From NCBI GenBank assembly GCA_944383195.1, contig CALWOP010000177.1:58390-122389 (forward strand): DNA of 64,000 nucleotides, in the 5' to 3' direction. The position numbers and the translations under genes were made by a program. The notes under the pieces are model-generated. The model was not told where the DNA came from and searched no databases. It saw only the letters and a program-made list of their open reading frames with translations. Below are positions 4,141 through 60,105 of the stretch, piece after piece. Numbering within the stretch: the first letter of the stretch is position 1; each line of letters starts with the position of its first letter. The DNA comes from an uncultured Oscillospiraceae bacterium. GTDB lineage: Bacteria; Bacillota; Clostridia; Oscillospirales; Oscillospiraceae.

Positions 4141-4854
4141 ATGAAATGGTCAGAAATTCTCCCTCAAGAAGCGTTAGATTTAAGTGTCCAACTTGAAAAC
4201 CATGCTTTAGAAGAGCGCTCTAAGGGAAAAGTTCTATTTCCAGAATAGGACAAAATCTTTAGAGCGCTTAATCTTACGCGTCCAGAAGATGTAAAAGTAT
4301 GTATAGTTGGTCAAGATCCATACCATACGCCTGGAGCGGCAAATGGTTTAGCGTTTTCTATTTCGGATGGTAGTCCTATTCAACCTTCATTAAGAAATAT
4401 TTTTATCGAGCTTAATAGCGATTTAGGGCTACCAATTCCGCGATCAGGAGATTTAACTCCTTGGGCAGAAAAAGGAGTTTTATTACTAAATGCAAGTTTA
4501 ACAGTGTATGAGCATCAAGCAAATAGTTGTATAAATTGGGGATGGAATAAGTTTACAACAGCTGTATTAAAGGCCGCGACTACACTTCCTCAACCTATTG
4601 TTTTTATGTTATGGGGAGCAAATGCGCAGGCTTTATTAAAGGATTTAAATTCAAGCCCTATGGTTTGGGATAATCCTGGTGTGGCTAGAGAGAATTTAAT
4701 TAAGAAAGCGTATATTCTTTCTTCTCACCCAAGTCCTTTTAGCGTTAGTAAACAATGTAAAGGAACTCCATCTTTTAAAGGAAGTAAACCATTCTCAACA
4801 GCGAATAATTTATTGGTATCAATGGGAGGAGAACCTATTGATTGGACTTTATAA
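4141..4854 (+). CDS. ung: uracil-DNA glycosylase (family 1 UNG) with one in-frame TAG at 4246-4248
   Basis: The motif VKVCIVGQDPYHTPGAANGLAFS and HPSPFS is present. The TAG aligns with the Gln in the E. coli Ung segment IYPPQKDVF (here FPE*DKIF). Confidence 0.85.
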
Positions 4855-4870
4855 AGACAGGGGTTAGTAG

Positions 4871-6172
4871 ATGATAGATTTAAAGAAAATACAAAGTGAT
4901 TTTGAATCTATCCTTGTTCATTCTCAAGATTATCCGTTTTATCTCAATGCAGAGAATACAATTAAACAATGGTTTGAAGCAAAAGATGACATAATTTCTA
5001 AGTTTTGCGGCGAGCTTATTGTTAGAAGTAAAACTCCTGTTCGGATAGATTTAACCGAAGAACAAAGAAATAAAAGATTTGAGGAGTTTATTCATACTCT
5101 TGATGAAAATGGAATTTTAACTGAAGAATTTGAATTATTTCTTCGAGATAATAAAGGAGGATTTTTTGATAATAGAGTTTTGTTACCTTATCCTTCTTTC
5201 AATATCCCGCTTGGCTCTAAGTTATCTAAGTCATTCAAAAGATTTTTGAATAACGCGGAGACAATTAGATGGGTGCAAGATACCGCTTCTCGATATATTC
5301 AAGAAAACAAGATTGAAGGATACCTATATCTTTCGGTTCATCCTATTGATTTTCTGACTTTATCTGAAAACAACGAAAATTGGTGGTCTTGTCAAACTCT
5401 CGATGGAGATTTTAGAGCAGGAAATTTAAGTTATATGGTAGATAAAACTACTATCGTTGCATATCTCTCTAATGGAAAACAAGAGGAAATGAGATGTTTA
5501 CCGAGAGGAATGAAATGGTATAGTAAAAAATGGAGAATGTTAATTCATACAGACAGAGAGAATAATATCTATTATAATCGACAATATCCATATGAATCAA
5601 GAGATTTACTTGAAAAAGTTCATAATATGGTAACGCAATTCATTCCTGTCGAGATGTCTATGCCTTTAGATTATGGTTTTAAGGTAATTCAAACTCAATG
5701 GGGTGGAGGTCAATTATCTTATAATCAGATAAACGCGGGCGGCAGGATACATGATACCAGAGACACGATTGATGTAGAAGATTATCTTGGTTATTCAGAT
5801 TTAATTCAATCGAGTACATATGCTCCAATTATTTCAGTAAATACTGAAAAATACCAAGATTATGCTAGCATGTGTGACGATGGCAAAAGTGCAGAAGAGG
5901 CTTTCTTTAATCGGGTATTTAAAATAAAGATTGGAGAAAAGCCAATTTGTCCATGTTGTGGCACAGAGCATATCAATAGGGAGAGTTCTTTCCTCTGTGA
6001 ATATTGTATAGCAGAGAAAGAGGCAGATGAAGATTTTTATTTGACTTGTGATAGTTGTTATCATAGAATATATGATGAAGATGAAATTTATTGGATGGAT
6101 GGCAGACCTTATTGTAAGAGTTGCCATAGTTTAATGCAACAAGAGGATAGATATATTGAGGAGGAAGAATAA
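4871..6172 (+). CDS. hypothetical protein (433 aa) with C-terminal tandem zinc ribbons
   Basis: ORF with no TAG; CPCCG...CEYC...CDSC...CKSC. Confidence 0.6.
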   Translation: MIDLKKIQSDFESILVHSQDYPFYLNAENTIKQWFEAKDDIISKFCGELIVRSKTPVRIDLTEEQRNKRFEEFIHTLDENGILTEEFELFLRDNKGGFFDNRVLLPYPSFNIPLGSKLSKSFKRFLNNAETIRWVQDTASRYIQENKIEGYLYLSVHPIDFLTLSENNENWWSCQTLDGDFRAGNLSYMVDKTTIVAYLSNGKQEEMRCLPRGMKWYSKKWRMLIHTDRENNIYYNRQYPYESRDLLEKVHNMVTQFIPVEMSMPLDYGFKVIQTQWGGGQLSYNQINAGGRIHDTRDTIDVEDYLGYSDLIQSSTYAPIISVNTEKYQDYASMCDDGKSAEEAFFNRVFKIKIGEKPICPCCGTEHINRESSFLCEYCIAEKEADEDFYLTCDSCYHRIYDEDEIYWMDGRPYCKSCHSLMQQEDRYIEEEE

Positions 6173-6483
6173 TGGCTAAAAGAGGAGACGCAGCGCGTCA
6201 GTCTGTAATGGATACAATTTGCAAGGCTTTCGGAGATAATTTTGTAGGTATTCAAGATAAGAAAGCCTATGTGTTTGCCCAGGATGGAGTAAATGGAGAG
6301 CGGATTCAATTTGCAATTTCTATTACTATGCCGAAAACACCAATTGCGGGCGGGGGAGATAGTATGCCCTCTACAGCAAGCTCTGAAGCGCCGGCCGCAA
6401 CTAATTTTACTCCAACAGAATTGGCTCCGGAGGATAAGGCCAAGATCGAGGAGTTAAAGCAGCGACTCGGCATTGTTGATTAA
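6172..6483 (+). CDS. hypothetical protein (103 aa)
   Basis: ORF sharing an ATAATGG overlap with the previous gene. Confidence 0.5.
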   Translation: MAKRGDAARQSVMDTICKAFGDNFVGIQDKKAYVFAQDGVNGERIQFAISITMPKTPIAGGGDSMPSTASSEAPAATNFTPTELAPEDKAKIEELKQRLGIVD

Positions 6484-6611
6484 AAATTTTGGGTATGGAA
6501 GTTTAAGATATTCAATATAAAGTTTAATAATAGTACAATCTCCTTACTTATTCAAGAGAGATATAGAAGATTTAATCAAGCTTTATATCTCTCTTGAAAA
6601 TATTAAAAATA

Positions 6612-58583: not shown

Positions 58584-58875
58584 ATCTATTTGACACTACA
58601 ATAATTTTATTTTATAATTACTTATGTAATTCAGGGATAAAGGATAGAAGATTATGACCCGAAAGCAAATGAAGAAACTCGCTAAAGAGCTTTATGAATG
58701 CGAGCAAATTCATCAAAATGAATCTTCCTCTAAGGAAGAAAAATCCCGCGCTGATAATCGTATCATTCAAATCACAAATTAGATTATGGCGTTAAATGAT
58801 GGGATTAACATCATGCTAGAAATTGATACTATGGTTCAAGATTTAGCAACTAATAAATAATAATATTAAAGGAGA

Positions 58876-59151
58876 ATGTCTACTATGGCAGCTATGAAAG
58901 AAAATACTCGTAAGGTTTTAGATTATTTAAAGGAGAATAATGACAGCAATTTGACAGCCGCAGATGTTGCTGAGGCTCTTGGACTTGAGAAGCGTCAGGT
59001 TGATGGTATTTTTACTTCTGCATTTCAGCGTAAGGGATATGGTGAGCGTATTCCCGATGAGGTAACTCTTGAAGACGGTTCCCATCAGAAGGTAAAGTAT
59101 CTTCGTCTTACTCAAATGGGACTTGATCTCGATCCCGACGCACAAGAGTAA
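58876..59151 (+). CDS. hypothetical protein (91 aa)
   Basis: ORF followed by a terminator at 59161-59188. Confidence 0.45.
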   Translation: MSTMAAMKENTRKVLDYLKENNDSNLTAADVAEALGLEKRQVDGIFTSAFQRKGYGERIPDEVTLEDGSHQKVKYLRLTQMGLDLDPDAQE

Positions 59152-59193
59152 TTATTATCGGGAAGAGGATAACTCTTCCCGAATTTTTTAACC

Positions 59194-60105
59194 ATGATTA
59201 TAGGATTATTAATAATAGCTATAATCGGGTTAATAATCTATATCTGCTATCTCAAAAAACAAAGATATGAAGTTATTTAGTTTAATAGAGAACAAGAGGC
59301 AAAGAATTTAGCAATATAGAGAGAATTATAGTAGAATGAAGAAAAATTAACTGGGTTAAAAAATAATATTCAAACTGAAAATAATATCCTTTAGTCTCTA
59401 ATTAAAACACAAGATGAAATGCGGGAAAGCGCTCAAAAACGTGCTGAAGAAGACTACTAGTCTCGCGTCTCCGCACTTCTAAAACAATATGAAGAAAAAG
59501 AAAATCAATTATCTTTGACTTTTGATGCTAAAAGTCGAGATTTATCAGATAAAATTGCTATTGAAGCAGATAAATTAGCTTAGTTATAGGCTAAATAGTT
59601 AGCTTACATTTAGGCTTAGTAGAGATAGGAAGAAATTAATTCTAATCAAGATTATTATCGTCTTGCTCTTGATGAAATTGACATAAACGATATTGTATTG
59701 TTGAGAGAGTTATAGCCTAGATTTACCAAGAAAGAAAGTATAGATAAACTTATATGGGAAGTTTATTATAAGCCAGCCTATGATATATTAATGACTCATT
59801 TATTTCCGAAATCAGTTAAGTATTGTGGCATCTATAAAATCACGGATTTAACTACTGGGAAGTCTTATATAGGACAATCTGTTGATATAAAAGAGCGATT
59901 TAGATAGCATATTAAATCAGCCTTAATTTATGGTAAAGCCACTAATAAGTTATATTAGACTATGCAAAAATCTGGAATATATAATTTTATATTTGAAGTA
60001 TTAGAAGAAGTTCCAAGAGATAAATTGAATGAGAGAGAAATATATTGGATTGAATTTTATAAGACTAAAGATCTCGGTTTAAATGGGACAAAAGGAGGAG
60101 CCTAA
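59194..60105 (+). CDS. membrane-anchored, Q-rich (TAG-encoded) coiled-coil protein fused to a C-terminal GIY-YIG domain; 303 codons, 15 of them TAG
   Basis: N-terminal TM helix IIGLLIIAIIGLIIYICYL; a coiled coil that reads LA*L*AK*LAYI*A**R*EE; C-terminus VKYCGIYKITDLTTGKSYIG*SVD...REIYWIEFY...GLNGTKGG; ends in TAA 60103-60105. Confidence 0.55.

Follow-up and report, generated by a model that had tools for sequence, protein, structure and literature searches.

The DNA analysed here, hereafter the window, is a 64 kb stretch of contig CALWOP010000177.1 with 36.8% GC and plausible genes exclusively on the + strand, many of which contain in-frame TAG codons. With TAG read as sense, it holds 62 open reading frames (ORFs), ending at TAA in 53 cases and at TGA in nine. 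A large array of 31–32 tRNA genes and a transfer-messenger RNA (tmRNA) gene lies at 6.8–27.9 kb (ARAGORN, Rfam). Family searches identified genes for nucleotide and DNA metabolism, encoding uracil-DNA glycosylase (UDG), ThyX, a PIN-PhoH protein, gyrase B, gyrase A, an ATP-dependent DNA ligase, an RNA ligase, a polynucleotide kinase and RNase H, and a NAD salvage set composed of PRPP synthetase, NAPRTase and NAD synthetase. The structural and lysis genes encode four tail-fibre-like proteins with an Mtd_N N-terminus and an endolysin with Phage_lysozyme2, Amidase_2 and SLH domains. A major vault protein (MVP)-like protein and about ten homing-endonuclease-like genes complete the set.

The window probably belongs to a large uncultivated phage of about 150 kb with a Firmicutes host. 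A megablast search of the GenBank phage collection with 20 kb of the window gave no match, and IMG/VR contains many relatives, on contigs of 105–183 kb and one of 402 kb. The 147.8 kb contig CALCFD010000051.1 (L050), from a Eubacterium metagenome-assembled genome (MAG) bin, is about 95% identical to the window over 6.7 kb, while another relative, with 58% identity, was binned with a Lachnospiraceae MAG. Of a genome of about 148 kb, the window covers less than half.

ORF coverage, domains lying across TAGs and the bridging of TAGs by homologues all agree that TAG is a sense codon in this phage. ORFs of at least 150 aa cover 0.54 of the window, as compared to 0.74 with TAG as sense and 0.58 in a control with TGA as sense. 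Pfam domains span TAGs in PhoH (residues 219–412, four TAGs), Phage_lysozyme2 (4–166, four), Amidase_2 (two) and Thy1 (21–200, two), as well as in GIY-YIG (four proteins), NUMOD-like and PDDEXK_5 domains, and an HNH protein and a UDG-adjacent one are likewise listed among those with a domain across a TAG. ThyX, PhoH, the endolysin and the GIY-YIG enzymes each remain in one frame across their TAGs, as an earlier interpretation of this DNA, the sequence-only reading, had described. The bridging test masked one stop type in the window ORFs and aligned them to standard-code ORFs from distant loci. The test still gives antisense artefacts and the + strand counts alone were used; there, the high-scoring segment pairs bridged 60 TAGs and ten TAAs, several of the latter at gene junctions, and not a single TGA. 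Whole-frame BLAST, for which every stop was masked (as X or '*'), was dropped; spurious matches arose in frames without genes and in antisense, probably from the DNA-level likeness of close relatives with SEG and composition correction off.

After start refinement, in which starts were moved to an ATG behind a Shine-Dalgarno-like sequence, 90 in-frame TAGs were counted in 21 + strand genes. These TAGs are real and far beyond chance. The sequence-only reading took every in-frame TAG as a read-through position, which fits these 90, with the TAGs at or near gene ends discussed below as possible exceptions; some TAGs counted in the maximal ORFs beginning at 4838, 37178, 41808 and 50035 are instead located upstream of the real ATG. 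Its view that the TAG-containing frames are not pseudogenes was borne out, since the interruptions are only TAG, never TAA, TGA or a frameshift, and the orthologues of the ORF with 16 TAGs (59194–60105) in TAG-free relatives (L049, L031 and L032) are single uninterrupted ORFs. The base following TAG, compared with that following CAA/CAG as a measure of read-through context, showed no difference (P = 0.37).

TAA is the predominant stop, and the TGA stops at 40415–40417 and 52677–52679 are correct, as previously proposed. In two genes, a TAG directly precedes the TAA: 13577–14065 (at 14060–14065) and 27939–28841 (at 28836–28841). In a third, 37649–38398, a TAG (38387) lies three codons before the TAA. 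Two last-codon TAGs were thus observed, against about 0.4 expected. The earlier statement that no ORF ends at a TAG is accurate in that all 62 ORFs reach a TAA or TGA, but the three genes with a TAG at or near their end allow either reading.

Comparison with relatives supports glutamine as the amino acid assigned to TAG, the best assignment by a wide margin. Opposite the TAGs of the window, the relatives have Gln 164 times, TAG 143 times, Lys 80 times and Glu 54 times. In a Codetta-style test on 49 related IMG/VR loci, using only the sense codons of the relatives, Gln was enriched 9.5-fold over background, and its log-likelihood exceeded that of Lys by about 300 nats; the observations are not independent, as some loci are near-duplicates, although the direction is unambiguous. 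The reverse test, in which the TAGs of the relatives were compared with the residues of the window, also gave Gln, as did the splits by alignment identity, with Lys only about 22 log-likelihood units behind in the low-identity alignments of relatives' TAGs. A Codetta-type inference had been suggested together with the original proposal of TAG as Gln, and its outcome agrees with that proposal.

Individual columns tell the same story. The relatives keep the TAGs as TAG or swap them for CAA/CAG. Three TAGs in PhoH occupy columns that consist of Gln codons or TAG in 15 relatives, with 12 CAA, two CAG and one TAG at 49728, 13 CAA, one CAG and one TAG at 49878, and 12 CAA and three CAG at 49914. The endolysin TAG at 50917 faces six CAA and one CAG in seven relatives, and the TAG in the 'YIG-TAG-S' motif of a GIY-YIG protein (52050) faces Gln codons in 14 of 18 homologues. 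In alignments with PDB sequences, the PhoH segment 'ISEA-TAG-N' falls on 'DEAQN', and the UDG TAG at 4246 faces the Q of the Coxiella UDG segment 'yPPQkdif', consistent with the conserved Gln that had been predicted there; the two relatives compared both have CAA at this position. The corresponding alignment of the endolysin is too distant to inform on its TAG columns. Among the paralogues within the window, the motif FDGxQH is written with CAA (2348-frame gene, 28638) or with TAG (40229). The TAGs of the tail-fibre-like genes are mostly TAG in close relatives too, with CAA alternatives, and the predicted recurrence of the motif W-x-TAG-L-x-Y in these genes was found twice, at 19816 and 20409.

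The tRNA array includes an amber-suppressor tRNA with the anticodon CUA (Table 1). This decoder was not mentioned in the sequence-only reading and is central to the system. Its ARAGORN label 'Pyl' reflects the CTA anticodon only. The tRNA forms a canonical cloverleaf with U8, G10, A14, G18-G19, U33, U35, A37, the T-loop, an encoded CCA and a 4-nt variable region, and its acceptor end has a U1·U72 mismatch followed by G73. Both tRNA-Gln genes of the window have A1-U72 and G73, and of the window's 30 further tRNA genes called by ARAGORN, tRNA-Gln(CUG) gives the best alignment score with the suppressor. A tRNA(CUA) is found in the same slot, between tRNA-Ser(UGA) and tRNA-Leu(CAA)/tRNA-Cys, in six close relatives (L001, L002, L003, L005, L021 and L027), and the genes on either side of the suppressor are TAG-free. 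U72 and G73 are present in all of the suppressor tRNAs of the relatives and the U1·U72 mismatch in most, the exceptions being C1·U72 in L027 and G1·U72 in one L007 copy.

In E. coli, the amber suppressor supE (glnV44) is a tRNA-Gln(CUA), and the identity elements for GlnRS are a weak 1:72 pair, G73, G10 and U35, as well as G2-C71 and G3-C70. The phage tRNA resembles supE in its CUA anticodon, U35, G73, G10 and weak or unpaired 1:72 position, and differs from it in C2-G71, C3-G70, the U·U at 1:72 and the non-E. coli host. The acceptor features of the suppressor are tRNA-Gln-like, and by this analogy it would be charged with Gln by the host.

TAG is not distributed uniformly among the genes (chi-square 314, 61 d.f.). 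This restriction by gene class, which is central to the system, was not reported in the sequence-only reading. In 23 genes for replication, nucleotide and NAD metabolism and RNA repair (8,032 codons), a class that was grouped after the counts had been seen, TAG accounts for none of the 219 Gln codons, as compared to 90 of 266 in the remaining genes (Fisher P = 1e-27). The share of TAG among Gln codons is 38% in the endonuclease-like genes, 29% in the endolysin and the adjacent transmembrane (TM) protein, 28% in PhoH, UDG, ThyX and two unknowns, and 21% in the tail-fibre-like genes.

Because of the order in which the class was defined, we checked its orthologues in up to 30 other phage loci. 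No TAG was found in the aligned codons of the MVP-like gene (23,972), gyrB (12,917), gyrA (15,888) or the DUF2828 gene (6,181), and none in roughly 100,000 aligned codons for the TAG-free class overall. In the orthologues of the other genes, TAGs per 1000 codons amounted to 13–27 for the nuclease genes, 6–23 for the tail-fibre genes and 6.6 for the endolysin (1.3–23 for the tail-fibre and lysis genes taken together). This identical split in the orthologues indicates that the partition is a maintained property of the phage family. The two classes also differ in codon usage: the GC content at third codon positions is 0.23 in the TAG-bearing and 0.29 in the TAG-free genes, the fraction of AAG among Lys codons 0.26 versus 0.46, and that of GAG among Glu codons 0.22 versus 0.42. 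Altogether, AAG, GAG and CAG make up 42–46% of the Lys, Glu and Gln codons in the TAG-free genes and 15–26% in the TAG-bearing genes.

Given these observations, we consider it very likely that the window derives from a code-15 phage of about 150 kb that reads TAG as Gln with its own tRNA(CUA) and uses TAG unevenly, and in which recoding would act as a gate. In this mechanism, the phage provides its own decoder, the tRNA(CUA), which the host glutamine-charging system presumably aminoacylates in analogy with supE-type amber suppressors. The charged tRNA would then compete with the host release factor RF1 at TAG. As they contain no TAG, the replication, nucleotide, NAD and RNA-repair genes could be translated in an unmodified standard-code cell. 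Full-length tail fibres, the lysis proteins, most of the homing-endonuclease-like proteins, the membrane-anchored GIY-YIG protein, PhoH, ThyX and UDG would need the suppressor. Late or dangerous proteins may thereby be held back until the suppressor tRNA accumulates. Such a translational gate, as proposed for other recoded phages, seems the most likely function.

The strongest competitor is a constitutive reassignment without regulatory meaning, in which the uneven use of TAG merely follows differences in codon usage or GC content, or the origins of the gene modules. We regard this as a possible though less probable explanation. It is favoured by the two codon-usage classes, which exist independently of TAG and of which the TAG-bearing one is more AT-rich at third positions, and it fits with the TAGs in UDG, ThyX and PhoH, which are not typical late genes. 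However, the complete absence of TAG from the TAG-free genes of the window and their orthologues is far stronger than a compositional shift would produce, and recoded phage clades that are unrelated to each other have evolved the same structural and lysis bias (Borges et al., bioRxiv 10.1101/2021.08.26.457843). A variant of the gate, in which the code switch of this lineage mainly keeps DNA-cutting enzymes and selfish elements in check, as a safety catch, and is not only a lysis timer, appears rather unlikely to us. Its basis is that the top TAG densities occur in the free-standing homing-endonuclease-like genes (38%) and the membrane-anchored GIY-YIG gene (62%), and that TAG-carrying endonuclease genes lie within otherwise TAG-free blocks labelled as early.

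Several points weigh against a Gln-decoding phage with a translational gate. The TAG-free class was defined post hoc, an objection that the orthologue check answers in part, and the early and late labels of the genes are functional guesses, with UDG, ThyX and PhoH carrying TAGs despite usually not being 'late' genes. The TAG-TAA ends described above may represent old TAG stops with a TAA as backup, or TAG may still terminate there. The suppressor lacks the E. coli GlnRS pairs G2-C71 and G3-C70 and has C2-G71 and C3-G70 instead, a trait shared with the tRNA-Gln(CUG) of the phage itself; identity rules from E. coli may not hold in the host. Pfam or PHROGs scans of the ORFs in the 64 kb window revealed neither RF2 nor an aminoacyl-tRNA synthetase. 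Accessory genes for a code change, for example RF2 and GlnRS, are optional and occur in few published code-15 genomes. Finally, the hints at the host are limited to MAG binning (Eubacterium/Lachnospiraceae) and the SLH domain of the endolysin.

It is highly improbable that TAG, as a sense codon, is read as Lys, Glu, pyrrolysine or any residue except Gln. Lys and Glu are the residues most often opposite TAG after Gln, and Lys comes close to Gln in the low-identity alignments of relatives' TAGs, but Gln wins in every data partition and the strictly conserved columns are Gln. The discriminator of bacterial tRNA-Lys is A73, and the Lys tRNA of the window has A73, whereas the suppressor has G73 as in the phage tRNA-Gln. 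As for pyrrolysine, tRNA-Pyl has an atypical structure, whereas the tRNA(CUA) has a normal G18-G19 D-loop, T-loop and variable region, and the family scans of the window turned up no pyl genes. Least credible of all is the idea that TAG is still a stop and that the interrupted genes are either pseudogenes or mobile elements in decay. It draws on the homing-endonuclease-like nature of many TAG-rich genes, decay being frequent in this class, and on differences in homing-endonuclease content between strains, but 90 TAGs occur without a single in-frame TAA, TGA or frameshift, essential single-copy genes (endolysin, tail fibres, PhoH and ThyX) are hit too, TAGs stand in invariant Gln columns, a cognate suppressor tRNA is encoded, and the relatives conserve the TAG or have CAA/CAG in its place.

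Table 1. Features of the window, with the number of in-frame TAGs
Position	Strand	Feature	TAGs	Evidence or remark
4141–4854	+	Uracil-DNA glycosylase	1 (4246)	PDB UDG matches to E 5e-47; Pfam UDG
7922–8647	+	GIY-YIG and NUMOD homing-endonuclease-like	10	Pfam GIY-YIG 4–81 and I-HmuI NUMOD-like 194–238, both across TAGs
11155–11841	+	HNH endonuclease-like	1 (11377)	Pfam
12160–12432	+	90-aa ORF near the tmRNA		Weak sub-threshold match to ArfA (E = 0.004)
14323–14637	+	tmRNA		108 bits; tag peptide DNAYFENHLAA
16422–16496	+	tRNA-Gln(UUG)		U72-G73-CCA end in common with the suppressor
16557–16630	+	tRNA-Gln(CUG)		U72-G73-CCA end in common with the suppressor
17083–17198	+	tRNA		Rfam 51.2 bits; no ARAGORN call
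17399–17815	+	PD-(D/E)XK endonuclease-like	3	Pfam PDDEXK_5 10–128 across TAGs
19663–24449	+	Four tail-fibre-like genes, Mtd_N N-terminus	12 together	Family searches
25732–25805	+	Amber-suppressor tRNA, anticodon CUA, 74 nt		ARAGORN; Rfam tRNA 52.9 bits; fold; synteny
25810–26799	+	GIY-YIG endonuclease	0	Insertion of about 980 bp
27939–28841	+	Zn-ribbon-repeat and DUF2726 (Vsr/PD-(D/E)XK-like) endonuclease-like	4	Last TAG directly before TAA
28878–37199	+	TAG-free block: DUF2828/DUF7788, MVP-like, nucleotidyltransferase, phosphoesterase and RNase H-like genes	0	
28878–33215	+	DUF2828/DUF7788 gene and adjoining MVP-like gene (809 aa)	0	MVP shoulder and Vault repeats in the MVP-like protein
37649–38398	+	GIY-YIG endonuclease-like	6	One TAG three codons before TAA
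39707–40417	+	Paralogue of 27939–28841	5	TGA stop
40498–47151	+	TAG-free block: PRPP synthetase, YqeY-like, NAPRTase, NAD synthetase, phosphatase, polynucleotide kinase and phosphoesterase genes	0	
41841–42290	+	YqeY/GatB-C-terminal-like protein	0	Pfam YqeY E = 1e-10; phrog_1460 'tRNA amidotransferase'
47189–47935	+	Paralogue of 27939–28841	5	
48852–50108	+	PIN-PhoH ATPase	5	Three TAGs in Gln columns invariant among 15 relatives
50152–51555	+	Endolysin (Phage_lysozyme2, Amidase_2 and SLH)	6	
51557–51868	+	Small two-TM protein, putative holin	4	Directly after the endolysin
51993–52679	+	GIY-YIG endonuclease-like	5	TGA stop
52676–58583	+	TAG-free block: RNase H, gyrase B, gyrase A and ATP-dependent DNA ligase	0	
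59194–60105	+	TM helix, coiled coil and C-terminal GIY-YIG protein	16	
60386–61012	+	ThyX	2	TGA stop

The reading of TAG as Gln by means of a phage suppressor is already well described, and is new here only for a lineage not previously annotated in this way. Phages using code 15 (TAG to Gln) were reportedly described by Ivanova et al. in 2014. Alternatively coded gut phages are now known from the crAss-like, Lak, Garnet, Amethyst, Agate, Sapphire and Topaz clades (bioRxiv 10.1101/2021.08.26.457843; PMC9523058), and Peters et al. provided proteomic proof of recoding in crAss-like phages (PMC9523058). Borges et al. reported that structural and lysis genes are recoded while replication genes are often compatible with the standard code, and found a strongly recoded intron endonuclease in TGA-recoded Agate phages (bioRxiv 10.1101/2021.08.26.457843). 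The window phage shares with published code-15 phages the in-frame TAGs at Gln positions, a phage tRNA(CUA), TAA-dominated stops and low GC, together with the concentration of TAGs in structural and lysis genes, gyrase, ligase and RNase H being compatible with the standard code here. A tRNA(CUA) is common among published code-15 phages, although detection succeeded in only some 40% of them. Strongly recoded homing endonucleases (one of them in an early gene in the published cases) and the presumed dependence on host synthetases are further common traits of the recoded or alternatively coded phages. It differs from published code-15 phages in that TAG use peaks in nucleases, with up to 62% of Gln codons in the membrane-anchored GIY-YIG protein, and not only in lysis genes; its large set of tRNA genes with a tmRNA and the lack of RF2 and synthetase genes in the window are also listed as differences.

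Its large genome, inferred from relatives of 105–183 kb, and its probable Firmicutes host are like those of the Agate and Sapphire phages and fit either of these clades of Borges et al. No terminase gene, which would serve to assign the phage to a clade, lies in the window. The Phassvirus phAss-1 (OQ749652), a gut phage of about 136 kb annotated with table 15, has TAG in 41 ORFs, 36 tRNAs and three suppressor tRNA(CUA) genes, with no phage synthetase found (Babkin et al. 2023, PMC10607447). Like phAss-1, the window phage is a large gut phage with in-frame TAGs, a suppressor tRNA(CUA), many tRNAs and no phage synthetase found. Unlike phAss-1, it has one suppressor tRNA in the window instead of three, and megablast with 20 kb of the window detected no nucleotide similarity between them.

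Under table 11, about one third of the genes of this phage and of many of its IMG/VR and MAG relatives appear as fragments or pseudogenes, and table 15 should therefore be used to re-annotate them. With the window, a lineage of about 150 kb, rich in tRNAs and equipped with gyrase and a vault-protein homologue, probably joins the phages that redefine TAG within a standard-code host. Its TAG-free and TAG-bearing genes are cleanly separated and exemplify the split behind the hypothesis of 'recoding as a timer', with the known mechanism unchanged.

Among the TAG-bearing genes, 59194–60105 is the most recoded gene of the phage family. TAG represents 62% of its Gln codons, and full-length orthologues in 14 loci have 0–24 TAGs each. 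It was thought to contain 15 TAGs in a coiled coil; there are 16, of which 14 indeed fall in the TM and coiled-coil part and two in the C-terminal GIY-YIG domain. In many relatives, this protein is encoded in synteny downstream of gyrase and ligase. The small protein following the endolysin had been called a holin split by TAGs. Two TM segments, four TAGs and the position beside the endolysin are all present, but the protein has no family match and a holin role is suggested by its position only. Similarly, the five paralogues said to carry a TAG in a common motif correspond to five copies of L(I/V)G-TAG-(R/K/Q)F(G/N)xLTV in only three genes, the Zn-ribbon-repeat endonuclease-like gene and its two paralogues. 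A sixth copy of L(I/V)G…F(G/N)xLTV, at 28155, has AAA (Lys) in place of TAG. The gene 27939–28841 is missing from the 95%-identical contig L050 (window 27815–28772 compared), and hence the endonuclease complement varies between near-identical strains.

The suppressor locus shows some further variation. The sequence of the window's suppressor tRNA is markedly unlike that of the closest IMG/VR relatives. The insertion with the TAG-free GIY-YIG endonuclease gene starts 5 nt after the suppressor tRNA and has no counterpart in the closest IMG/VR relatives, with L021 and L002 used for comparison; homing by this element 3' of the tRNA could move suppressor alleles from one co-infecting phage to another. 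The related locus L004 (6341–6431) has a suppressor tRNA(CUA) of 91 nt, in which the variable region forms an additional hairpin; the hairpin loop, CUUUGAA, resembles the Gln UUG anticodon loop. We rejected its classification as a Ser-derived suppressor, since its acceptor and D arms match those of the Gln-type suppressors.

The YqeY/GatB-C-terminal-like domain binds tRNA-Gln in other systems. The protein with this domain in the window was considered as a recoding-specific tRNA-Gln accessory and rejected, because homologues also occur in the relatives L014 and L024, which look standard-coded. The tRNA at 17083–17198 has intact acceptor, D and T arms and 54 nt in place of the 11-nt anticodon arm, corresponding to an insertion or an intron, and a tRNA-Tyr is found nowhere else in the array of the window. 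The tmRNA and the nearby ORF with a weak match to the ribosome-rescue factor ArfA permit the speculation that ribosomes reading through host TAG stops are rescued, which would be sensible in a suppressor-carrying phage.

The protein encoded next to the MVP-like gene bears the PHROG label 'RNA-binding protein'. A search with the MVP-like protein matched only three 'huge phage' records, and phage MVPs have already been reported, without mention of an alternative code (bioRxiv 10.1101/2023.11.10.566534). More than 30 phage contigs, as well as Cytophagales genomes, encode relatives of the MVP-like protein.

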